DNA of 64,000 bases. It comes from Tannerellaceae bacterium (GTDB lineage: Bacteria; Bacteroidota; Bacteroidia; Bacteroidales; CAMTPD01). A model generated the notes under the pieces. It did not search any database and had not been told where the DNA came from. It saw only the letters and a list, made by a program, of their open reading frames with translations. A program made the position numbers and the translations under genes. The stretch is taken from NCBI GenBank assembly GCA_051656605.1, contig JBOGCF010000057.1:307-64306 (forward strand), in the 5' to 3' direction. This document shows positions 5,349 to 41,825 of the stretch, in pieces (positions within the stretch are counted from its first letter, which is position 1; each line of letters begins with the position of its first letter).

Positions 5349-8300
5349 ATGTACTTTTCGAAAAACCATACTAACCCTTTACTGATCACTCTTATATACC
5401 TACTGACTACAGTATTGGGAGGGGAAGGAGCATTGTGTGCCCAAACGTGGAGCGACTCAATTAAAACGGTAGATTCGCTCTATACGCGTGCACTCTTCGA
5501 TGCCTATGCGCTTAAGCAATACAGAGCTATGCGCGATTCTGCCTTTTCTGCGGTCGTACTTCCCAAACATCAAAAACTAAAGGCACACGAAAAATGGTTG
5601 GGTCCCGGTAAGCTCAAAGCCAAACTACGAGGACGAGCCGAAGCTTCATTGGGCATTAAATACGTGCACATACAAAATCCCGATTTACCCTACAACGCTC
5701 GTAAACGTATTATTCCGGAATTTGATGAAAATATCGAATTGTCGTTTGATGGATCTTTAGGTGAGAAGTTGAAGATGAAAACCCACTTTACTACCGATCC
5801 CTTTAATGAAAAAAACTTGAACAGCTTGCATCTCGGTTATACAGGCTATGAGGATGAAATCATTCGTTACATAGAGGCCGGAAGTGTCACTCTGCATACC
5901 GAAAACTGTCTGATAAACTCAACCTCTTCTTTGTTTGGAATCAAGGCCGGAATACAATTAGGTCCCCTTACGGTCGACTTTTTGGCGGCGAGCGAAAGTA
6001 ATACAATAGTCTTGCATGAAGAGGGAGGTGGGGGAAATCTTAGAGCATGGGAATTGGAAATTGATGCATATGATGAGTATCGTCATTTCTTTTTATCCCA
6101 TTTCTTTCGCAACCACTTCACCCAACATACACAGCTTGCATGCTTAAATAAGTCACCTTTATTTATTTCCCGTATTGAGGTTTGGATTACCAACACACAA
6201 GGCGTTTTGGAAGATAGTCGGCATGTTGCAGCTATTGCACAGCTTGGCGATGTAGATCAGCTACACGATAAACCTGTGGATAATGAGGGGAGTTTACTTT
6301 ATCAACAACTTATCAACAGCGGTTCAAAATGTAGAAATGTGGACAATACCTCAGAGTTGCAATCTGTGACGCAAGCTTATAATGCTGATTGTGAGATGGT
6401 ACGGAGGGCCCGGCGCTTGTTGCCCGAAGAATACGAGTTGCAATCTTCACTTGGATATGTTTCATTAAAACGTCCGTTGCAGAGTTATGAACAACTAGCT
6501 GTTGCTTATGAATACACCTATCAAGGGCAGACTTATCAGGTAGGAGAATGGGCCGATTTATCTGAAACCTCACAACAAGAAGCTTTATTTGTACGTTTGC
6601 TTAAACCGGCTCATAGCTTTCCGTCTCATTATGCATGGAAACTGATGATGAAGAATATTTATACGATTCCGAATGGATGTGAGGGGAAGCAAGGTTTCGA
6701 GTTTGATGTACTTGTGAGAAAAGAGGAGTCTACAGATTATACACCTTTTTTAGAGCTTTCGGGGGCGAAGACTCTTTTGCAAATTTTACAATTAGACAGG
6801 GTGGGTCCCAATAACCGTAATGGGCCTGATGGCAGGTTTGACTATGTTGAAAATACCACGATTCTTCCAGCTTTAGGATGTATCGTTTTTCCTTTGACTG
6901 AGCCTTTTGGCGATTATCTGTCCGGCGCTACTTCTCCTCCTTCTTCTTCCTATGCTTGTCAAGCTCTTTACGACTCTACATTAGTCAAGGCCCGAGCTCT
7001 GATCTCTCCCCGACAAATCGTGCTTCGAGGGAAAAGTAAATCCAAACAGCGAGGAGTCTATAAATTAAAAGATCATCAATTTTCTCCAGGATCTCTATTG
7101 GTAAAAGCGCAAGATAAGGAGCTTATAGAGAATGTTGACTATACCATTGATCCAGAAAATAACCTGCTTACAATTATCAATGAGGAGTATTTGTTGAGTA
7201 ATGCGGGGATATCTATTTCAACCAAGCAATCTTCTTTTTTGTATGGAAACCGGCAAACGCGTCTCGGTATCAATCTAAATTATAATGTTAATAGGAGTTT
7301 GTCGTTGGGAGCATCGTGGATGATGGTACAAGCAAAACCTCGATTCGAATCGTATGCTTCTGCTGATGAATTTGTAAATAATACGATTTATGGCTTGCAT
7401 TCACGTTACGTGAAATCATGGAAAACGAGGATGGGAAGCGATTCGGTACAAGCAAAAAACACATTGGTCTGGAACACAGATGTGGCGTTTTTACGTTCAA
7501 AGGCAGCTCAGAAAGGAGCCTTTTTGTTTATTGATGACTTTGAAGCAAATCATGTAATGGCCGATTTGTCGCAACCTTCTAAATGGAGTTTAAGCTCGAT
7601 ACCGATAGATGGATCTCAGTTTCCAGAGTCTTTGTTGTCTAATGCGGTAGAGACCGGTTTGAATCGCGCATTGATCAATTGGTATACCATAGAACCATCT
7701 TTTGTAAAACCGGGAAGCAAGTATCTGCCAGAATACCTTCGATACGATAAAGAAGCGCTTTCCAATCATTATGTACGTAGCATCAATACATCCGAATTAT
7801 TCCCCAATCGCGATGTAGACGATACAGATCAACGTTATATTTCATCCTTCAATCTTTCTTATTATCCAAACGAACGTGGGCCTTACAACCTCGATGCAAC
7901 TGATATTACCTCCGAAGGTTTTCTGTTGCACCCTCAAAAACGATGGGGAGGCATTATGCGCTCGATAGATGCATCTGATTTTGAGACTCAGCACGTACAA
8001 TACCTCGAATTTTGGATGCTAGACCCTTTTTTGTATTCGAATGTACATCAAGGAGGAACTTTGACTATTGATCTCGGAACTTTGAGTGAAGATGTATTGA
8101 AAGATAACCTGCTGTCGGATGAAAGTAGTATTGATCTGAAAAATGACTTAAGGAGTGAGGGGACATCAATTTGGGGTGTTATTCCTCAATTTCAGACAGG
8201 GACACAAGCTTTTGACGGAGGAGATGCGGTAGTGACTCGACAAGATGTGGGGCTTAACGGTTTATCCGGCGATGATGAAGCTCATTTGGAGGTGTATAAA

Positions 8301-11300
8301 ACGTTTCTTGATCGCTATTATGTGCAGGTTGATGCGAGTTCAGAACGGGAGCGGACATTGCCTCGCACGGTAGCTTCGTCGCCTTCCGGTGAGCGTTATG
8401 TTGGTTTTTCGGACAAACGCTATACGCACAGCAGAGCGTCTTTTCATGAACGGATGAAAGGGATTAACGGAACAGAAGGTAATTCGGGACGTGAAGCAAT
8501 GAAGGAGTTTTTTTGGAAGTATTCACCCGACTCGGAGGATTTAGATCATGACATGACGCTCTCTACCGAAGAGCATTTTTACCGATATCAGGTAAATTTA
8601 TCGCCCGAATCTCTCAATGGAGATCATGCATTGATTAAAGAAGTGCGGCAAGCCGAGGTGATAGCTCCCGACGGAACAGCAAGTCATGTTTCCTGGTATT
8701 TGTTTCGTATTCCTTTGCGCAATTACAGTAAACGTTTTGGTTCGATTGCAGATTTCAGATCGATTCGACATATGCGTTTGCTTTTACATGGCTTTGAAGA
8801 GGAGGTACATCTACGATTTGCTTCTCTGCGGTTTATGAAATCGGATTGGCAACAATGGGTCCCTGAAGCCAAAAGTGATTCGTTGTATTGGTATGAAGAT
8901 CCGGTACAATTGGCGTATTTGTCTGTTGATGAGAATAAGGAGTTATCTGAAGTGAATTATATAACACCTAATGGTGTAGAACCTCGTAGCGTGATGCATA
9001 ATCGAAAACAAGTGAGAGAAAATGAACATGCGCTTGAGTTTGAGGTTGAGTCTCTTCATCCTAATCAGCATGTCGCTGTTTGGAAACAGACCGATTTTGA
9101 TTGCCGTAATTATGGATCGCTTGAGTTGTTTTCTCATTTGCATGAAACCATATCGACGGGAAGTCACGTTGTGGATGGAGATTTCTCTTTGTTTATTCGC
9201 TTAGGATATGATGGTCGTACCAATTACTATGAATATGAAATTCCGATGGAGGTAACGCCTCACGGGCAATATAGTAATCAGTTATTTTCAGATAAAGAGA
9301 CGGTTTGGCCCAGAAACAATCGATTGGATCTCATTTTGCAACAACTCACTACCGCCAAAAACGAGCGGGATATTTCGGGAGCAGCAAAGAATGAGATCTT
9401 TAGTATAGAGACTCCGCAGCACCATGTAATTCGAGTCAAGGGAAATCCTTCCTTGGCCGACGTGACCACCTTAGTGATTGGCGTTCGTAACAATTCAGAT
9501 AAAATTCTCTCAGGTAAGGTTTGGATCAATGACATTCGATTGGCTCATCAACAAAAACAAAATGGCTGGGCAGCACGTAGCGAGTTAGAACTAACGTTGG
9601 GAGATGTAGGGCGATTTTCAATAGCAGGTATCTTCAAAAGTCGCGGGTTTGGAAATGTTGACCAACGATATAATGAACGAATTGAGAATGATAGGTTTCG
9701 TTTAGGTTTTACCTCTCGTATTGAATTTGGAAAAGTACTTCCCAATGTACTAAAGTTGACCATGCCTGTGTATTTGCAATGGAGTAAAGAGTCGGAATAT
9801 CTTCATTATAATCCTTTTGATAGCGATATTGAAATGGATGAGTTGTTGAAACAAGAAAGCAACCAGTCTGCACGTGACTCGTTGCGAAGGTTGGCTCGCA
9901 GTACGATTTCCTCACATAATATAGCAATTCAACAGATGGGATTTCGAATACGGAGTAAGCGACCAATGCCATATGACCTTGACAATTTTCGTTTAGGGTT
10001 TGTATATGATGGCACTACTGTTGCCTCTCCGAGTTTGCATTATGATAGAGGAAAACGGTATAGTGGTTATTTGAGGTATACTTATTCACCCGAAGAATTG
10101 TTCTTTCCTTTCTTTAAAAAAGCATCGACTCCTAAACAGGAGTGGTTGCGTGTACGATTTGTGCCTACGCAAATTACGATGGAAAGTTCTTTTTATCGCA
10201 ACTATGGCGAAACAAAATATCGACTCAACGAAGGAGATCACGCTACCGGGGCTTCTTTTGTGATGCAAGAGTTTCTTTGGAATCGAGCTTTTACGCTTGA
10301 GTGGGATCTTCTTAAAAATGTAAAGCTACGTGTAAGAACTGCTACGAATGCTGAAATTGAAGAGCCGGAGATGCAAGTGAATAAACGTATCGATCCGGAT
10401 GGGTTTCGCTTCTGGCGTGATTCGGTTTGGAATAGTATCAAAGATTTTGGTAAACCGGTACGCTATGAACAACAAGTAGCCCTACATGCACATATTCCGG
10501 AGTTGAAGAATAGATGGCTCGGTTGGATAAAAGGTAGTATGCATTATAAAGCGGATTATTTTTGGGATAGAGGCTACGATGATGCGATTTTTGGGGATGG
10601 TGGAAATATAATTAAGAATTATAGGTCGGCAGGAGTCAATGGAACGTTCAATCTGTCCAAGTTTGTTACAACTCTGGACAGTAGTGATGCGAATCGTTCT
10701 AGATGGTTGAAAAAGTTTTTACCTCATATTGAAGTGATACATAAAACAGATAGAGGTATACAGATTCCACGTTATAGGCATGGAGTCAGAGATATAGGAG
10801 GGCAGAATAGGGTAGATGGGCGTTTATTGCCAGGGATTGGGTTTGCTCTCGGAGCGGTGTCTTCTAGTTTTATCAACAAGGTTATTAACAATGCAGATGT
10901 TCATATGACAGATGAAACGACGAATAGGGCGATCACATCAACGAATAAGTATTCATTATGGAAGGGCGTACTCCGGCCAGTTTCCGGATTAAGGTTTGAG
11001 TTGTCTTGGTTATCCGATAATAACAACCGTGATGAGTTTGCTTTAAATCCCAATGCTCAGTCGAATCAGATTAGTCGTAAGTCGAGTAGTCGTGTAGCGA
11101 GTCGTAGAAAAAGTATAAATGCGAGTAAAAAAACTAACATAAATAGTCTTATACCGCCACAGGAGAATAGTCTGGTTTTGCCAAATTGGAAGATTTATTA
11201 CGATGGTCTTAACAGATATGATTTTATTAAAAAGGTGTTGAGCCACTTGGCTTTTACACACGCGTACTCTTGTATCCATTCCGTCGAAGTTGTGCATACG

Positions 11301-35015: not shown

Positions 35016-35462
35016 ATGTTGGCAATAATCAGAAAGCACGGCGTGTGTATTAGACTTGAAACAGAAAAGAAGATCAGTTATTTGTATTGTGCAGAGTGTA
35101 TGGAAGAAGGGTTTTCAGAAGCGTTCTTGAAAGAATTGGTACAGCTTCGAGATGAAATTTGCGCTAATCTAAATCAACTTATTCTCGAACACAATAAAAG
35201 GTGTCCGCTGCACAGGCGTTTTTCTACCATGGGAATGTATTTAGATGCCCCCGAAAATCAGCAAAGTTTGATAAAGGAAGCCCAAGCTTTCGCGCTACTT
35301 ATTTCAGATGCGATGGACGATGGATCGATCACGAATGGGAAAACTGCGTGGGCAAAGATACTTTCGCGATTAGAGCTGAGTAATGGTACTTTTCTCAAGT
35401 ACAGTACATGGCAAAAATACTTGCAAATGTTTATTTTTGTTTATATTGTTATGAAAGAGTAA
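35016..35462 (+). CDS. Hypothetical protein (orphan, Cys-containing)
   Basis: 148-aa ORF with host-like AT-rich composition and no family I recognise. Contains CAEC and a later CPLH. Confidence 0.45.
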   Translation: MLAIIRKHGVCIRLETEKKISYLYCAECMEEGFSEAFLKELVQLRDEICANLNQLILEHNKRCPLHRRFSTMGMYLDAPENQQSLIKEAQAFALLISDAMDDGSITNGKTAWAKILSRLELSNGTFLKYSTWQKYLQMFIFVYIVMKE

Positions 35463-35510
35463 TAATAAACTGCGTATTTTTATTTTCTCACCCTTTTTTT
35501 ACCTCTTTCG

Positions 35511-35549
35511 AGCCCTATTACTTTAGATATAGTCCAAAGTAATAGGGCT
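35511..35549 (+). terminator. Strong hairpin at the AT-rich/GC-rich junction
   Basis: AGCCCTATTACTTT / AAAGTAATAGGGCT, a 14-bp perfect stem with an 11-nt loop, followed by TT. Confidence 0.55.
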
Positions 35550-35769
35550 TTATCGTATTTGTATAAAAAGCTTAATTTCTGTTTGTGTGATTCGTTATTT
35601 TGTTTATGCTGAGCGAGTTGTGCGAGTGGTGAGGGGAGGATTGCGATGTGTTTCGAAGGCCTTACCTTGCGGTCGTTATCCAGTAGTTCATGGATAGCAA
35701 ATTGTTGATCTTAATTTACACGATGCGTGTACTGTTAACCCTGTTGAAGAATGAACTTAAATAAATACT

Positions 35770-38250
35770 ATGAATCAGAGAAAAGTGTCACTTTTTGCCA
35801 ATTGCAAGCAGAAAGTACAACAAGAAATTACGTTAGAAGAGGTACGAGCGCGTGCCGGTGAAGCAAAGCACATGCAGGTGATTAAACAAATTGAAGCTGC
35901 CGCAAGCAGGGGAGATAAAGACGAGGCCGATCGGCTCAAACGCACGCTGCCGGCCGTGGTGTTTGGAGGATTGTTTCGGGGAGGTCATGCCGTGAAGAAT
36001 CTCGTAGCAGGGAGCGGTTTGTTGGTGCTCGACTTCGACAAGCTCACGCCGGAACAGGTAGAAACAGCCTTGCGCATTTTGCGAGAGCAACCCTCGGTGG
36101 TGATGGCCGCGCCCAGTCCTACGGGCAGAGGGATCAAAGTGGTGGTATGTACCGATCACGACCCTTCGCGCCATCCGGAGGTATTTGCCTATACCAGCCA
36201 ATACTTCGAATCGTTGCTGAATCTCACTGTAGACCAAAGTGGAAAAGACATCTCTCGTCTGTGTTTTCTGTTTTCGATCGAAAAGCTTCATTACAACGAG
36301 CATGCACAACCGCTCGACTTGTCGCAGATCGGAACGTGTGCCGCAGTAGCACTTCCGGTAGTGAAGCCTCCGAAAACAGACCCTTCGGAAGTGGTAACCG
36401 GCGAATCGGGTCCGACTACAGAGGGTGGAAGGATCAAAGGGATTCCCACTCATGTGATGCGCAAGTTGCGCATGAGTACCGGAAATGCAAGCAGCGTGGG
36501 TGGTTCCTTGGGCGAGCTGGCCGACGATTTTATCGCCCTGCAATGGCGACGCAGCGAAGCACTCAGCATACACCTTGAGTCGAGAGCTTGCTTCAAGGAC
36601 GGCGCACGCAATGAGTTTGTATTCAAGTTTGCCTGCAAAGCCTGCCAATGCGGAATTCCGCGCCCCATTGCCCAAGCCTGGGGCGAAGAACGCTATGGAA
36701 GTGAAACCTTCAAGTCGGGTGAGGTGATCTCTGCTTTTGGCAGTGCCTATAGTAGCAATGAAACGCTTTTTGGCAGGGATTCGGACCGACTGCAACAGGC
36801 CGCTCAGGCGTTGCACAACCTCCCTTTTGGCGAAGGCGGAGTCGGGGGCGAAGGAGAAGCTCTACCCACGGGCGACGAGTTGTATGAGTACACACCCCTG
36901 CTGCCCGATACCATCTTTGAGAAGTTGCCGCAATTTTTTCAAGATGCCGTAAAGCCACAGCGCAGCAGCAGGCAGCGCGATATCATGCTAGCCTCGGCAC
37001 TCACGGTGGTAAGTGCCTGTATGCCCGGAATTACCGGTCTTTACGATGGTTGCGAATACAGTCCGCACCTCTATTTCTTTATCGTGGCAAAGGCTGCCAA
37101 TGGTAAAAACATGGCTTCGCAGCCCTTCAAGATGGCGCGTCATTACGTGAGCATTCTCAAGACCGAAAGCGAACGTAAAATAGCTCAGTACACCCAAGAC
37201 AAAGCCAATTACGATGCCTATTGCCTGCAAATGAAAGCCGAGCGTAAGCCGGTAGATACCAGTCGCGAACCCATCGAACCCAACCCGGTGATGCCGTGGA
37301 TACCGGCCAACATCAGCCGGGCGATGTTTATCAAGCAAGTGGTTTACAACGGTCGCCTCGGGTCGTTTGTGTTGGAGACAGAGGCAGATGCCTTGTCGGT
37401 CAATAAGAGTACCGACTGGGGCGATCTCAGCCTGCTGCTTCGTGCCGCCTTTCATCACGAACGCATCTCGATGGCTCGCAGTGGCGACGGCAAAAAGGAT
37501 GGTTTCGAGGAGATCGACGAACCCCATTTTGCCATCTTCGTTACCGGCACGCCCGACCAGTTTGTCCGTCTCATGGGCGATGCCCAAAACGGTCTCTACA
37601 GCCGCTTTTGCATTTATACCTATAGCGAGCGCGAAGGGTGGCATGATCCGGCACCGTCGTCGCAGGGGGTAAACTTCAAGCAATACTATTCCCGCTTGAG
37701 CGAAACCATGGCGCAATATGCCTTTTTCTCGCGCGAACATCCGGCACAGTTTCATTTGACCGAGTCGCAGTGGCGACGTTTCAATGCCGAGATGGAACCG
37801 CTGCTCGACAAAGCGCAGGACTTTGGTTTCGAAAACGAACCCAGTGTGGTAAAGCGTCTCGGACTTATTTTATATCGCGTGGCAATGACGCTGAGTGCCG
37901 TGCGCCGTGCCGAGCGTGAGATAGGCAGCAGTGAGTTTTACTGCAACGACAACGATTTTGAGTCGGCACTGGCCATCAGCAGGGTCTGTTTGGAGCACAG
38001 TAAACTAATGCTTTCGGGCTTCAAGGTGCAAGATAAGTTTTCGGGCGGTCTCAAAAAAGGAGTCAGCAGTGCCGAAGAGATCCTCGCCAAACTCCCCGAT
38101 ACCTTCAGTAAGAAAGACGTTGTCGAGGTGTATAAAGAACTCGGGAAGTCGGTCTCTACCGCCCGTCGGTTTTTAGAGAACTCCGTCAAAGAAGGACGAA
38201 TCATCAAAGAAGGTCGTGGTACCTTTCAAAAGGTAGGTTCAAAAAAATAA
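35770..38250 (+). CDS. VirE_N (BT4734-like) / DUF3987 primase-helicase-like replication protein
   Basis: 826 aa. The N-terminal ~180 aa match the BT4734-like/VirE N-terminal pattern (LPAVVFGGLFRG...LLVLDFDKL). Then a low-complexity linker, a large DUF3987-like C-terminal region and a terminal winged-helix-like tail. Confidence 0.75.
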   Translation: MNQRKVSLFANCKQKVQQEITLEEVRARAGEAKHMQVIKQIEAAASRGDKDEADRLKRTLPAVVFGGLFRGGHAVKNLVAGSGLLVLDFDKLTPEQVETALRILREQPSVVMAAPSPTGRGIKVVVCTDHDPSRHPEVFAYTSQYFESLLNLTVDQSGKDISRLCFLFSIEKLHYNEHAQPLDLSQIGTCAAVALPVVKPPKTDPSEVVTGESGPTTEGGRIKGIPTHVMRKLRMSTGNASSVGGSLGELADDFIALQWRRSEALSIHLESRACFKDGARNEFVFKFACKACQCGIPRPIAQAWGEERYGSETFKSGEVISAFGSAYSSNETLFGRDSDRLQQAAQALHNLPFGEGGVGGEGEALPTGDELYEYTPLLPDTIFEKLPQFFQDAVKPQRSSRQRDIMLASALTVVSACMPGITGLYDGCEYSPHLYFFIVAKAANGKNMASQPFKMARHYVSILKTESERKIAQYTQDKANYDAYCLQMKAERKPVDTSREPIEPNPVMPWIPANISRAMFIKQVVYNGRLGSFVLETEADALSVNKSTDWGDLSLLLRAAFHHERISMARSGDGKKDGFEEIDEPHFAIFVTGTPDQFVRLMGDAQNGLYSRFCIYTYSEREGWHDPAPSSQGVNFKQYYSRLSETMAQYAFFSREHPAQFHLTESQWRRFNAEMEPLLDKAQDFGFENEPSVVKRLGLILYRVAMTLSAVRRAEREIGSSEFYCNDNDFESALAISRVCLEHSKLMLSGFKVQDKFSGGLKKGVSSAEEILAKLPDTFSKKDVVEVYKELGKSVSTARRFLENSVKEGRIIKEGRGTFQKVGSKK

Positions 38251-38271
38251 AATCTCAGTTTATCGAAAATA

Positions 38272-38311
38272 ACGGGTGTCGGGCGAAAGTCCGATACCCG
38301 TCGTTTTTTTT
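38272..38311 (+). terminator. Rho-independent terminator after the primase-helicase gene
   Basis: ACGGGTGTCGG / CCGATACCCGT stem (one G-U pair) followed by a T-run. Confidence 0.8.
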
Positions 38312-38444
38312 AGCTTATTGTTCTTTTTCGATTATAAATCGAGTCTTTACCCTACGCAAAACAGTGGATTGCCGGGTATAGGTTTTCCTGAGTTGCCAGT
38401 GGTTTTATCGGATTGCTAACATAGTGGATTTCGGAAAATGGAGA

Positions 38445-38843
38445 AGTGGTCAAAATGTCTGTGAATGGTCACGAATGACCACTTTGTGACCACTTGTTAA
38501 ATGGTTGTTGGTTAGGTGTTAGGGTGGTGTTTTGGAGGTGAAGTGGTCACATGACCACTCTCTCTCTTTTAGATCTCGTGTTATTCGTATTTTTCATATC
38601 ATATCAATTATATTATCTAAATAATATATGTAATCAGATGAAAGGAAATGAGGGAAATTAAAAAAAGAAGAGGGGGCACAAAATGACCACTTTTTTGACC
38701 ACTTCCCGGTTTTCGAAAAGAAACGGATGTGGGGGCTTGTGGTAAGTAGCTGATGTGTAGGTGATAACTTCGATGGGGGGCTTTGCTTTTGTAAAGAAGC
38801 AAGTGGTCATCGTGTGGCCATTTATGACCACTCAATGACCACT
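38445..38843. repeat. Iteron-like array of TGACCACT / AGTGGTCA octamers
   Basis: Perfect copies: AGTGGTCA at 38445, 38542 and 38802; TGACCACT at 38476, 38487, 38552, 38684, 38696, 38825 and 38836. Degenerate copies at 38363, 38398, 38423, 38464 and 38813. Confidence 0.85.
38581..38680. other. AT-rich spacer between the iteron modules (candidate DNA-unwinding element)
   Basis: About 100 bp, almost entirely A/T (ttattcgtatttttcatatcatatcaattatattatctaaataatatatg...), inside an otherwise GC-rich island. Confidence 0.55.
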
Positions 38844-38846
38844 GTA

Positions 38847-39077
38847 TCACGGAGCACCGAGGATGTTGACAAAGCAGGCAACCACCTTGGGCGGTAGTAT
38901 CTTCATGTACGGGCGCCAACCTGCGGCAAGAAGTGCGTCGCGAAGTCCGGGCGTGCTGTTTATCCAGCGCCCCAGTGCTTTGGTGGCCATCAAAGGCGCA
39001 CTGCCGATAAAATAAAGTTGTGCTAACTCGGTAAAGGCATAGGCCCTGATGCGAAAAGGTTGTTCGTCGTTTTTCAT
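38847..39077 (-). CDS. DUF4248 domain-containing protein
   Basis: 76 aa. Pattern FRIRAYAFTELAQLYF...WINSTPGLRDALLAAGW...ILPPKVVACFVNILGAP fits DUF4248, a family that co-occurs with DUF3987 and HU-like genes in Bacteroidales. Confidence 0.8.
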   Translation of the reverse strand: MKNDEQPFRIRAYAFTELAQLYFIGSAPLMATKALGRWINSTPGLRDALLAAGWRPYMKILPPKVVACFVNILGAP

Positions 39078-39129
39078 GTTCTTAGATTTTTAATACACTT
39101 AAATATACGAATAATGTATTAATAATCAA

Positions 39130-39262
39130 AGCGGTAAGCTGTTTTTGTTTTGAGAAAAGCATGCCTGCTTTTTCCAAAAACTTAGCAAGGTTTCTCCAAG
39201 AAGCAAGCAAGCTTTTTCGAGGAACCTTGCATGCTTTTAGAGGGAGCTTCGCAAGCATTTTG
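39130..39262. repeat. Degenerate tandem units of about 21-23 bp, locus B of the dispersed family
   Basis: Five to six units, each a purine-rich head, a GCA/TGC-containing mini-palindrome and a T-run. Examples are AAAAGCAtgccTGCTTTT at 39155-39172 and GAACCTTGCATGCTTTT at 39222-39238. Confidence 0.5.
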
Positions 39263-39350: not shown

Positions 39351-39668
39351 ATGTCAACACCCCATTTGAATGATGTAGAGCAGATTGCTCGTTTTGCCAA
39401 AGCCCTGGGACATCCCATGCGCATTGCGATTCTGGAGTTTTTGCTCAAGCAAGAGAGCTGTTTTTTCGGCGAAATTCACGAAGTGCTTCCTATCGCGAAG
39501 GCTACGGTTTCGCAGCATTTAAAAGAATTGAAAGAGGCCGGATTGATACAGGGCGAGATTGAGCCGCCCAAGGTGCGCTACTGTATCAACAAGGAAAACT
39601 GGGCGGTTGCCCAACGCCTTTTCTCTGCCTTGTTTGCGATGCAATCCAAATCGACAGGCTGCTGTTGA
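39351..39668 (+). CDS. arsR: ArsR/SmtB-family metalloregulator
   Basis: 105 aa. Winged HTH ([14 protein letters not shown]...[26 protein letters not shown]). First gene of the arsR-arsC-acr3 operon. Confidence 0.9.
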
Positions 39669-39714
39669 TTGTATGAGTTGTTTTTTTTGATTACGAACTA
39701 AATAAGCTTAAAGT

Positions 39715-40158
39715 ATGAAAGTATTGATTTTATGTACGGGCAACAGTTGCCGTAGCCAGATGGCACATGGTTTTGTACAATCGTTTGACGAGCGCCTGGA
39801 TGTGCACTCGGCAGGAACAAAAGCGGCAGGCAAACTCAACGCCGGAGCTGTGAAAGCGATGGCCGAAGTGGGTATCGATATCAGCAATCACACTTCAGAT
39901 CCGGTAGAAAAATACCTGAACGAAAAGTGGGATTATGTGATCACCGTATGTGGCGGGGCCAACGAGACGTGTCCTACCTTCGTGGGAGATGTGAAGCATC
40001 GCCTGCACATGGGCTTCGACGATCCTTCACACGTGACGGGTACTCCGGAGTATGTAGAGAGCGAATTTCGCAGAGTGCGTGACGAGATCAAGGAGCGTTT
40101 CTTTGCGTTGTATAGCAGTGAAATGAAGCCTGAATTGGATCGTGATGGAGACAAATAA
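39715..40158 (+). CDS. arsC: Arsenate reductase, LMW-PTPase (thioredoxin-coupled) type
   Basis: 147 aa. CTGNSCRS P-loop and a downstream CGGANETC cysteine pair. Confidence 0.92.
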   Translation: MKVLILCTGNSCRSQMAHGFVQSFDERLDVHSAGTKAAGKLNAGAVKAMAEVGIDISNHTSDPVEKYLNEKWDYVITVCGGANETCPTFVGDVKHRLHMGFDDPSHVTGTPEYVESEFRRVRDEIKERFFALYSSEMKPELDRDGDK

Positions 40159-41200
40159 AGAACAGGGAGGTATCGGCTTTTTTGAGCGATACCTTACCCT
40201 TTGGGTAGCCTTGTGTATTGTGGTCGGTATTGCGATAGGGCAGTATTTGTCGGCTGTTCCGGCGCTGCTGAGCAGGTTTGAATATGTCAATGTTTCGATT
40301 CCGGTGGCGATCTTGATTTGGCTGATGATTTTTCCGATGATGCTCAAGGTAGATTTCGAGAGTGTGAAAAACGTAGGTAAGCGCCCCAAAGGCATTTTGA
40401 TTACGTGTGTGACCAATTGGCTCGTGAAACCGTTTTCGATGTTTGCCATCGCTTGGTTCTTTTTCTTTGTGGTGTTTAAGGCATTTATTCCCGAAACGCT
40501 GGCGCACGAGTATCTGGCCGGAGCGGCATTGCTGGGCGCTGCACCTTGCACGGCAATGGTATTTGTATGGAGCTACCTTACGCGTGGCGATGCGGCCTAT
40601 ACGCTGGTACAGGTGGCGGTAAACGACTTGATTATTCTGGTTGCCTTTGCTCCTATTGTGGCTTTCTTGCTCAACATCGGAGGGGTGACGATTCCGTGGG
40701 ATACCCTTTTCTTGTCGGTGGTGTTGTTTGTGGTGATTCCGCTTACAGCAGGCGTTATTACGCGTGTTACGGTAATCAAGCACAAGGGGGCCGAGTATTT
40801 CAACAACGTGTTTGTGAAGAAGTTCGACAAGTTTACCATCGGCGGATTGCTACTCACGCTTGTTATTTTGTTTTCGTTTCAGGGCGAAACGATTCTGGCC
40901 AATCCGATGCACATTGTGCTGATCGCGATTCCGTTGATTATTCAGACGGTACTGATCTTCTTTGTGGCTTACGGATGGGCGCGTTATGAAAAATTGCCGC
41001 ATTCGATTGCTGCTCCTGCCGGAATGATTGGGGCGAGCAACTTCTTTGAATTGGCCGTGGCGGTAGCGATTTCATTGTTTGGCTTGCAGTCGGGCGCGGC
41101 ACTGGCTACGGTAGTGGGAGTGTTGGTCGAAGTACCGGTGATGCTGCTGTTGGTACGTGTAGCCAATAACACCCGTCGCTATTTTCCTGCCGACAAATAA
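40145..41200 (+). CDS. acr3: Arsenite efflux transporter, ACR3 family
   Basis: About 351 aa polytopic membrane protein with a conserved GAAPCTAMV segment. The ATG at 40145 overlaps the arsC stop by 14 nt. Confidence 0.92.
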   Translation: METNKEQGGIGFFERYLTLWVALCIVVGIAIGQYLSAVPALLSRFEYVNVSIPVAILIWLMIFPMMLKVDFESVKNVGKRPKGILITCVTNWLVKPFSMFAIAWFFFFVVFKAFIPETLAHEYLAGAALLGAAPCTAMVFVWSYLTRGDAAYTLVQVAVNDLIILVAFAPIVAFLLNIGGVTIPWDTLFLSVVLFVVIPLTAGVITRVTVIKHKGAEYFNNVFVKKFDKFTIGGLLLTLVILFSFQGETILANPMHIVLIAIPLIIQTVLIFFVAYGWARYEKLPHSIAAPAGMIGASNFFELAVAVAISLFGLQSGAALATVVGVLVEVPVMLLLVRVANNTRRYFPADK

Positions 41201-41390: not shown

Positions 41391-41825
41391 ATGGCACTAC
41401 GTTACAAGACTGTCTGGAAAAAAGACATGCGAAAGGATGCACAGGAAGGTGCAAAATTACTCTACGGGGCTACGGTGGTTACGGCTCAGTACTCGTTTGA
41501 CCAATTGTGTAAAGACATCACGGACAACTGTTCGGCTACGGCGAGCGACGTGCTGATGGTGGTGAGCGCAATGGTGACAATGGCCAAGAAGGCGTTGCTG
41601 CGTGGCGAAACGGTGGTGATCAACGGATTTGGCAACCTGCGCTTGCAATCGGGAAGCCGGGGTGTAGCCTCGGAAGAGGAGTTTAAAACCCATCTGATGA
41701 AGAAGCCTAAAGTGATATTCCGAGCCAGTACCTCCCTGCTCGAAGTGCGAGATCAAGTGCGCTACGAAGCACAGCAAGTTACCGAGAAGGCAGTGGAGTG
41801 TGACAGACCCCATTCGCTCGATTAA
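41391..41825 (+). CDS. HU-family (Bacteroidales HU_HIG-like) DNA-binding protein
   Basis: 144 aa. The pattern LCKDITDNCSATASDVLMVVSAMVTMAKKALLRGETVVINGFGNLRL is typical of the Bacteroidales HU-like family. Confidence 0.8.
   Translation: MALRYKTVWKKDMRKDAQEGAKLLYGATVVTAQYSFDQLCKDITDNCSATASDVLMVVSAMVTMAKKALLRGETVVINGFGNLRLQSGSRGVASEEEFKTHLMKKPKVIFRASTSLLEVRDQVRYEAQQVTEKAVECDRPHSLD

Follow-up and report, generated by a model that had tools for sequence, protein, structure and literature searches.

A candidate iteron-type replication origin downstream of a primase-helicase gene in a Tannerellaceae bacterium, with repeats that co-vary with a predicted winged helix

Results

A repeat array between the primase-helicase and DUF4248 genes

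We analysed a stretch of 64,000 nucleotides from a Tannerellaceae bacterium (the window), in which a gene for an 826-aa primase-helicase (35770–38250, + strand) is followed by an array of short repeats and then by a small convergent gene of the DUF4248 family (38847–39077, − strand; 76 aa). We argue here that the array is most likely a replication start site recognised by the 826-aa protein, a putative initiator, because the repeats and the predicted recognition helix of the protein change together in relatives.

The 826-aa protein matches PF08800 (8.8e-24) and PF13148 (7e-41) and no other Pfam family, Rep_3 included, while its small neighbour matches PF14053 (3.6e-17); by Pfam, the calls of a DUF3987-type gene and a DUF4248 gene that had been made in a first-pass annotation of the sequence are correct. 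The protein consists of a BT4734-type AEP domain (residues ∼1–185), a helical linker, a DUF3987 AAA+ domain (∼400–750) and a predicted C-terminal winged helix (768–821). In the AlphaFold2 model, an N-terminal α/β domain leads through a helical region to an AAA+ core, and the chain closes with a compact C-terminal winged helix; the mean predicted local distance difference test (pLDDT) score is 72.9, and that of the C-terminal domain is ∼84. The winged helix is predicted to comprise helices at 768–773, 781–790 and 795–807 and β strands at 778–780, 811–815 and 818–821. The best Foldseek matches of the protein in the PDB are MCM subunits, and its invariant residues include DFD at 88–90 and G445-K446. 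In the sections of PMC11724360 drawn on here, helicase activity is demonstrated for a DUF3987 protein with a small C-terminal domain and primase-polymerase activity for a BT4734-type AEP, and the authors propose both proteins as the replication machinery of their element.

The gap between the two genes is 596 bp long. Since the two genes converge on the array, neither has its promoter region there. The gap opens with an intrinsic terminator of the primase-helicase gene (38272–38311, + strand; a 13-bp stem, then T8), and equivalent hairpins stand behind the gene in the related loci L005/L112 and L006/L107. The array begins beyond this terminator, 195 nt past the primase-helicase stop codon, and its last copy ends 3 nt from the DUF4248 stop codon.

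Ten perfect copies of one octamer had been reported in this gap, and we reproduced every coordinate: AGTGGTCA is found at 38445, 38542 and 38802, and TGACCACT at 38476, 38487, 38552, 38684, 38696, 38825 and 38836. All ten exact copies of TGACCACT/AGTGGTCA fall within 399 bp (38445–38843), and none occurs elsewhere in the window. The expectation for the window is a mean of 1.30 copies with a maximum of 4, and none of 100 dinucleotide-preserving shuffles reached 10; when the 596-bp gap was shuffled alone, the observed count was reached in 0 of 500 trials. Copies with one mismatch are at background across the window (39 found versus 39.3 expected) and only a single one, AATGGTCA at 38464, lies inside the array, which is thus an array of exact copies. 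Weaker copies (AGTGGATT at 38363 and 38423, AGTGGTTT at 38398 and TGTGGCCA at 38813) sit where they had been placed, differ from the octamer at 2–3 positions and are individually not significant. The consensus of the octamer with its flanks is (A/T)TGACCACTT.

The copies are arranged in a regular manner. Adjacent direct pairs had been described as 11–12 bp apart and measure 11, 12 and 11 bp; both the palindrome of two copies (38542–38559) and the two modules of similar layout (38466–38494 and 38815–38843, 76% identical) are real. The segments 38445–38494 and 38802–38843 each contain two leftward and then two rightward copies, and are mutually 75% complementary or similar. The left iteron cluster (38445–38559) holds copies at 38445 (−), 38464 (−, one mismatch), 38476 (+), 38487 (+), 38542 (−) and 38552 (+), the last two forming the palindrome, which abuts an AT-rich core. 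The right clusters (38684–38843) hold copies at 38684 (+) and 38696 (+), then at 38802 (−), 38813 (−, two mismatches), 38825 (+) and 38836 (+). The innermost copies around the core are accordingly 38542 (−)/38552 (+) on the left and 38684 (+)/38696 (+) on the right. Three degenerate AGTGG-containing repeats further left (38363–38430, + strand; at 38363, 38398 and 38423) are of uncertain status, and are probably dispensable because they are largely missing or diverged in the orthologous locus L258.

A conserved AT-rich core

The GC content is 0.26–0.28 across 38550–38699, compared to 0.40–0.47 to either side, in agreement with the AT-rich block that had been placed between the two modules. We take the core, the presumed unwinding and loading region, to span 38560–38683; it contains, in order, CTCTCTCTTTT, TTCGTATTTTT, ATTATATTATC and AAAAAAAGAAGAGGGGG. 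The order of motifs (CTCTTAT-like, TTCGTWTKTTT, TATGTATTATATTATC, ∼45 nt, AAAAATAAGAGGGG) is the same in seven independent loci and is kept even between modules with proteins that are only 40–50% identical. Approximately 58 bp of the core (38575–38632) are nearly identical in L258, as against 87% identity in the coding flanks and ∼77% in the remainder of the cassette described below. Across 2.15 Mb of fetched DNA, the 12-mer TATTATATTATC is matched exactly nine times, with seven of these matches in DUF3987 module loci (six in the core of the gap and one just upstream of the gene in L004). This invariant core is most likely the unwinding and loading site, and it may also bind DUF4248 or HU.

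We consider it very improbable that the region instead serves as a promoter or codes for a structured RNA or a small protein, with the repeats being incidental. A 100-aa open reading frame (ORF; 38617–38919) does overlap the region, an E. coli-type promoter match lies in the AT-rich block, and 38430–38850, folded as single-stranded DNA, is more stable than its shuffles (z = −3.96). However, this ORF, already suspected to be an artefact and treated as one here, has no family match, is not conserved and overlies sequence that is replaced wholesale in a 97.7%-identical relative, and the gap has no Bacteroidetes −7 box (TAnnTTTG). The low folding energy arises because the inverted iterons themselves pair; RNAalifold over seven core regions predicts zero consensus pairs, and an Rfam scan of 34–43 kb has no match in the gap. 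The same scan returned a sub-threshold HTH-XRE match and a mir-126 match at 35505–35555, which we rejected as chance; it falls, on both strands, on a perfect terminator hairpin (35508–35552, seen in the sequence) of a 148-aa ORF upstream of the primase-helicase gene.

Two further candidates were set aside. Dependence on DnaA is not supported, since TTATCCATT, present in some cores, is not conserved, and the gap has no DnaA box at ≤1 mismatch. An ArsR operator was discarded since paralogous modules without an ars operon have the same layout. We also observed that the coding strand of the primase-helicase gene is C-poor (12–18%) and G/T-rich throughout the gap, in the window (38251–38846) and in nine other loci, with GT-rich runs beside the iterons.

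Co-variation of the repeats with the predicted recognition helix

Comparison of the window with L001, which is 97.7% identical, revealed that blastn similarity is lost from 38152 to 38845. L002 and L003 share the left breakpoint at 38152, and similarity resumes at 38842–38847. Codon 795, which encodes the residue that opens the predicted recognition helix, starts at position 38152, and the right boundary is the DUF4248 stop codon. The segment 38152–38846 (+ strand) therefore has the makings of an exchangeable specificity cassette, composed of codons 795–826 (recognition helix 795–807 and wing) together with all of the intergenic region that bears the repeats. In the comparison of the window with L001, the N-terminal part of the protein is 98% identical and the last 36 residues are 47% identical, and the iterons are different; between L001 and L109, the N-terminal part is 66% and the last 36 residues are 72% identical, and the iterons belong to the same family.

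The cassette of the window had no match among the 257 loci first compared. A protein that is 84% identical overall, P0003, nonetheless has nearly the same recognition helix (KSSSTARRFLENLIKEGRIIKEARGTF against KSVSTARRFLENSVKEGRIIKEGRGTF), and thus we predicted beforehand that its locus would carry TGACCACT. Indeed, this locus, the syntenic orthologue L258, has five exact copies of TGACCACT, all in the gap. L258 matches 38400–39242 of the window at 77% identity and has degenerate copies at positions matching those of the window; individual iterons decay between orthologues. Similarly, TGACAAAC recurs with P0002, the helix of which is like that of L003. Within the predicted winged helix, it is the recognition helix and wing that vary together with the repeats, in one case as predicted in advance, and this joint change makes the array most likely the site that the protein recognises.

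Related loci share the layout and differ in their repeats

In the first-pass annotation, a search of related Bacteroidales for the same architecture with lineage-specific iterons had been suggested as a check. The comparison downstream of DUF3987 homologues passes this check, with the same layout and lineage-specific octamers in related loci. Twelve loci reach the gap (L001, L002, L003, L005, L006, L107, L109, L110, L112, L258, L260 and L261; L111 does so partly), and in all 13 of these Tannerellaceae-clade loci, L111 included, the order is gene, repeats, AT-rich core, repeats in opposite orientation and DUF4248 stop codon. The repeat is of the TGGCTATA family in L001, L002, L027, L110 and L109, TGACAAAC in L003 and L260, TGACCCGT(A) in L005 and L112, TGGTCCAT and TGACCCAT in L006 and L107, TGAGCAAC in L111, and TGACC(A/C)AC in L261; the repeats of all these loci start with TGA or TGG. 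Enrichment relative to shuffles is significant in most loci tested, being clear in the window, L003, L107 and L112 and moderate in L001, L002 and L109. The genome UBA12018 has three modules (L002, L005 and L006) with three different iterons.

Judging from the low dN/dS (the ratio of nonsynonymous to synonymous substitution rates) of both genes, which is 0.09–0.21 for the primase-helicase (last 40 codons excluded) and 0.07–0.16 for DUF4248, the module is maintained under purifying selection and is not decaying. These values bear on the idea that the array is the fossil origin of a decayed integrated element, with a layout that is inherited and no longer used. Some features are as expected of a fossil: mobility genes were not found nearby, an ars operon is inserted inside the gene set, an origin-like region without DUF3987 exists in L250, and iterons decay between orthologues as noted above. 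Nevertheless, the 826-aa gene remains intact, conservation of the core exceeds that of coding sequence, and helix and iterons still co-vary through a recent cassette exchange in a 97.7%-identical backbone. Intact genes, a conserved core and continued co-variation point to current selection on the interaction, and we regard a fossil as improbable.

The orphan region is found in the same metagenome-assembled genome (MAG) as L001. At L250:8232–8600, DUF4248 accompanies an origin-like region with no DUF3987 gene or remnant beside it; the repeats, TGACCCGT/TGACCCTA, surround the conserved core motif, and the region is flanked by an EcoRII endonuclease and Dcm-type methylase pair. Because its repeats are of the L005/L112 type, the sequence suggests that this region might be served in trans by a paralogue. 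A separate observation concerns the assemblies themselves, which often break at the end of the primase-helicase gene, in the repeats or within DUF4248 (L004, L107, L108, L110 and L111). Since DUF4248 and the core are near-identical between paralogous modules, modules are likely under-represented or split in MAGs.

Comparison with known replication systems

Origins of Staphylococcus aureus pathogenicity islands (SaPI) consist of 6–12 short iterons directly downstream of rep, with an AT-rich centre and opposite orientation on either side; the iterons are read by the C-terminal winged helix of a self-loading helicase, Rep/ori specificities differ between islands, and in SaPI5 the primase is fused to the helicase (PMC9371898). 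As in SaPI and other phage-inducible chromosomal islands (PICI), the array in the window lies just 3′ of the putative initiator ORF, has an AT-rich centre and has at least two iterons on each side in opposite orientation. The likeness to SaPI/PICI previously drawn therefore holds for the repeat/AT-core/repeat layout but not for the features of an island, since we found no integrase, att sites, repressor or packaging genes here, and the locus has a fixed place in the chromosome and exists in multiple copies. Iteron length is 8 bp, as opposed to 5–6 bp in SaPI, and at the level of Pfam assignment (BT4734-type AEP with DUF3987) and of best fold matches (MCM-like) the protein appears distinct.

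In classical iteron plasmids (pPS10, F, R6K and RK2), initiator-binding repeats adjoin an AT-rich unwinding element, and incompatibility stems from the specificity of these repeats. These plasmids have a Rep_3/RepA-type initiator, iterons of 17–22 bp and DnaA boxes, none of which is present here, and they recruit the helicase from the host, whereas here it is part of the initiator. Thus, of the origin layouts to which the array had been likened, that of SaPI matches (PMC9371898) and that of classical iteron plasmids does not, given the absence of Rep_3 and DnaA boxes and the 8-bp repeats.

Satellite phage P4 couples a DnaG/Toprim primase to a superfamily 3 (SF3) helicase and needs a second repeat site (crr) a few kb away, whereas the 64-kb window has no second octamer cluster. 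The P4 origin consists of repeated octamers bound by alpha. In P4 alpha, primase, helicase and C-terminal winged helix form one polypeptide (PMC2777425); the chain studied here likewise joins primase, helicase and a predicted winged helix, a likeness of architecture only because its primase is an AEP and not a Toprim enzyme.

ORF904 of the Sulfolobus plasmid pRN1 combines an AEP prim/pol, a helicase and a C-terminal winged helix, and its origin of ∼166 bp lies directly downstream (PMC4234260, PMC2777425). The window has the same combination of AEP, helicase and, as predicted, winged helix, with an origin-like site downstream of the gene. However, pRN1 has as its origin a 100-nt stem-loop for which no iterons are described, served by an SF3 helicase, while here the protein has DUF3987 and the fold results from the inverted iterons; the gap folds at the z value given above, with no consensus structure across loci. 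The pairing of a BT4734-type PrimPol with a DUF3987 helicase is shared with AgaPP/AgaPH of Bacteroidota elements that carry prokaryotic Argonautes; in the portions of PMC11724360 consulted, these are encoded as two proteins by an integrase-bearing element located at a tRNA gene, with no origin defined, whereas here the two are fused, no integrase was found and an origin-like site is defined. By analogy, the array would work like the SaPI, P4 and pRN1 systems but belongs to none of them, given its different protein families and the lack of an island or plasmid context.

Neighbouring genes and chromosomal setting

A small ORF of 148 aa (35016–35462, + strand) is always found just upstream of the primase-helicase gene. 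It has no match in Pfam, NCBIfam, PHROG or PADLOC, and ORFs of 98–153 aa at the same position in L107, L109, L110 and L112 are 17–70% identical. DUF4248 varies very little between paralogous modules and in every case adjoins the repeat region. A PDB sequence search with DUF4248 gave chance matches only, and its AlphaFold2 model is weak (pLDDT 69), with nothing found by Foldseek at E ≤ 0.001.

The usual partner of the gene set, an HU-related DNA-binding protein (HU-HIG; 41391–41825, + strand; PF18291, 2.5e-19), is here separated from DUF4248 by an ars operon (39351–41200) that encodes arsR, a low-molecular-weight-phosphatase-type arsC and ACR3. The gene order in the window fits a set of DUF3987, convergent DUF4248 and HU-related genes with ars inserted; no amidase was identified among the window ORFs scanned. 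The same ars insertion is found in L003 and L005, and a Prismane/hcp gene follows DUF4248 instead of ars in L109 and L112, so that detoxification cargo seems to adjoin these modules. At a more distant metagenomic contig (L251:2706–4294 and 8001–10826), DUF4248 overlaps the 3′ end of a DnaB-type helicase gene, with HU-HIG, glucosaminidase and DnaG-type primase genes nearby. This arrangement suggests that the DUF4248/HU pair associates with different replicative helicases and primases.

The wider neighbourhood consists of housekeeping genes (rsmH and the dcw cluster, acyltransferases, LuxR-type regulators, PTPS and cytochrome bd). A scan of the ORFs across ∼28.8–50 kb turned up neither an integrase nor a tRNA or terminase-like gene. 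The closest genomes are uncultured Tannerellaceae/Porphyromonadaceae MAGs.

Distant relatives and gut Bacteroidales

Metagenomic relatives at ∼30% identity all end in a similar winged helix, and inverted repeat sets follow directly after the stop codon in several subgroups. Six loci with similar recognition helices have two or three copies of TAGGAAA, a hairpin and two copies of TTTCCTA, and L030 has four copies of TTCGCCA, ∼250 nt of AT-rich DNA and four copies of TGGCGAA; L016, L028 and L051 also have inverted repeat sets after the stop codon. In other relatives at this distance the arrays precede the gene, or exact 8-mers detect none. One of these distant relatives, L087, was rejected as a sharer of the octamer, as it actually has a tandem heptamer array that is not comparable (CAGTGGT/CAGTGAT, ∼14 units, L087:3619–3718, 2 nt after the stop codon); the wing of its protein shares a GTF motif with the window protein.

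In gut Bacteroidales the gene order is BT4734 (as a separate gene), DUF3987, DUF4248, HU, smalltalk and amidase, adjoining polysaccharide genes. This order is seen in Parabacteroides distasonis and Bacteroides finegoldii, with DUF4248 co-directional rather than convergent in L257. PLSDB labels the gut records as plasmids, and their gene content is that of chromosome pieces. Homologue searches with DUF4248 and the HU protein yielded only 5 and 9 close relatives, respectively.

A protein alignment scan of IMG/VR gave no full-length match and did not find the full module; the match of L233 covers residues 33–575, up to the end of its contig, and the remaining 16 loci match no more than the N-terminal part. 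Scanning IMG/VR for TGACCACT-N3-4-TGACCACT gave mostly noise. Some unrelated viral contigs carry 6–10 copies of AAGTGGTCA next to genes for primases or helicases from other families (L171:6868–6999, L229:3451–3636, L192:2058–2170 and L223:733–1116); since these contigs were selected through the octamer, their arrays may reflect convergence or chance, and we do not treat them as evidence on this locus.

Two other sets of repeats were rejected as related arrays or origins. Intergenic sets of TGCCTACT/AGTAGGCA with ∼20 bp spacing, two plus two or one plus two, occur in L004 (3111–3178 and 1974–2020), L006 (1168–1235) and L107 (1044–1090); they look like unrelated operators, and probably are operators because the L107 set lies just upstream of a LytTR regulator gene. 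Runs of AATTATCA that precede the HU and amidase genes in Parabacteroides look like leader or promoter elements and not like origins. In P. distasonis, (T)TCAATTATCAA runs lie directly upstream of HU and amidase genes (L252:8118–8150, L256:6000–6039 and 6880–6915, L257:6000–6025 and 6840–6860), and are probably a shared leader or promoter element.

Discussion

We consider it likely, with a probability of roughly 0.68, that the array at 38445–38843 and its AT-rich centre are the cognate replication origin of the 826-aa primase-helicase. The best reading, by analogy, is an iteron origin like those of SaPI, P4 and pRN1 with an exchangeable specificity cassette. From the anatomy, its conservation, the co-variation and the purifying selection described above, we infer how binding, melting, priming and firing could proceed. 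The C-terminal winged helix, through helix 795–807 and the wing, would bind the 8-bp iterons, which follow each other at intervals of one helical turn and face opposite ways to the left and right of the core. Binding could assemble helicase rings on both sides. The conserved AT-rich core would then melt, the DUF3987 helicase would load itself there, and the fused AEP domain would make the first primers for the host polymerase. Specificity would reside in the cassette (recognition helix, wing and iterons), and if modules swap this cassette as a whole, no cross-reaction would be expected between the paralogous modules of a genome.

Several observations weigh against an origin. There is no integrase, tRNA, att-like repeat or packaging gene within ∼10 kb, and the locus occupies the same chromosomal position in genomes at 79–96% protein identity, so that no mobile replicon is apparent. 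An origin that fires from a fixed place in the chromosome needs tight control, and none was identified. The exclusivity of the octamer was established within the 64 kb of the window. In gut Bacteroides and Parabacteroides the gap is 118–224 bp long and has no AT-rich core. Repeats are clearly significant in one of the three gut gaps tested: the B. finegoldii gap has eight copies of GCTTTA (0 of 500 shuffles), while those of P. distasonis are weak in L256 and not significant in L252. The layout thus generalises to gut genera only in part.

The co-variation proves a match between protein and site and not the firing of an origin, and the repeats could be cognate sites of the winged helix with a non-replicative role, in autoregulation, as a roadblock between convergent genes, in partition or anchoring, or in recruitment of the PrimPol-helicase to a single locus for defence or repair-type DNA synthesis. 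Chromosomal fixation without excision genes would suit such a role. In addition, the AEP domain matches PADLOC models of proteins associated with defence reverse transcriptases and CRISPR, and it matches the NCBIfam model of CRISPR-associated PrimPol below the cutoff of that model. Two paralogous modules also adjoin cas genes: a Cas9-like gene (L111:126–3596; HNH, RuvC_III; 1156 aa) lies immediately upstream of one DUF3987 paralogue, and a weak Cas6-like match (L112:103–765) lies upstream of another. However, the window has no adjacent reverse transcriptase gene and no ParA or ParB partner, and operator function is unlikely because the sites lie 3′ of both genes and the gap lacks the −7 box. 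Moreover, a strictly conserved AT-rich core between inverted iterons ∼100–140 bp apart suits unwinding and would be needless for a roadblock or an operator. We therefore judge a non-replicative role to be unlikely, although it is the foremost of the rival explanations, and favour an origin.

If the site is an origin, its place in the chromosome invites a more speculative proposal, which we put forward as doubtful. Integrase-less chromosomal modules, several per genome and each with an orthogonal initiator-iteron pair, might fire in place to over-replicate or amplify adjacent cargo or to feed it into phage particles, with DUF4248 and the HU-related protein as conserved cofactors that recognise the invariant core. 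In the window this cargo would be the ars operon; in paralogues it would be hcp, and in gut Bacteroides and Parabacteroides the polysaccharide loci. The set of DUF3987, DUF4248 and HU genes, in some cases with an amidase, is multi-copy in the Bacteroidales genomes sampled and often lies beside polysaccharide loci; we found no assigned function for it in the searchable literature.

An iteron origin of the kind favoured here would have several implications. The gene set gains a concrete cis element and a candidate protein-DNA recognition pair, and its natural specificity variants, at least eight combinations of helix and iteron, could be swapped experimentally. The sharply bounded cassette of helix, wing and iterons offers a clean example of modular co-evolution of initiator and origin. 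If the site fires, it would represent a new class of Bacteroidota origin and initiator, in which an AEP primase is joined to an MCM-like DUF3987 helicase, and genetic tools for these organisms might draw on it for orthogonal replicons. Another question would then arise, namely what role a fixed, non-excising replicon plays inside the chromosome.

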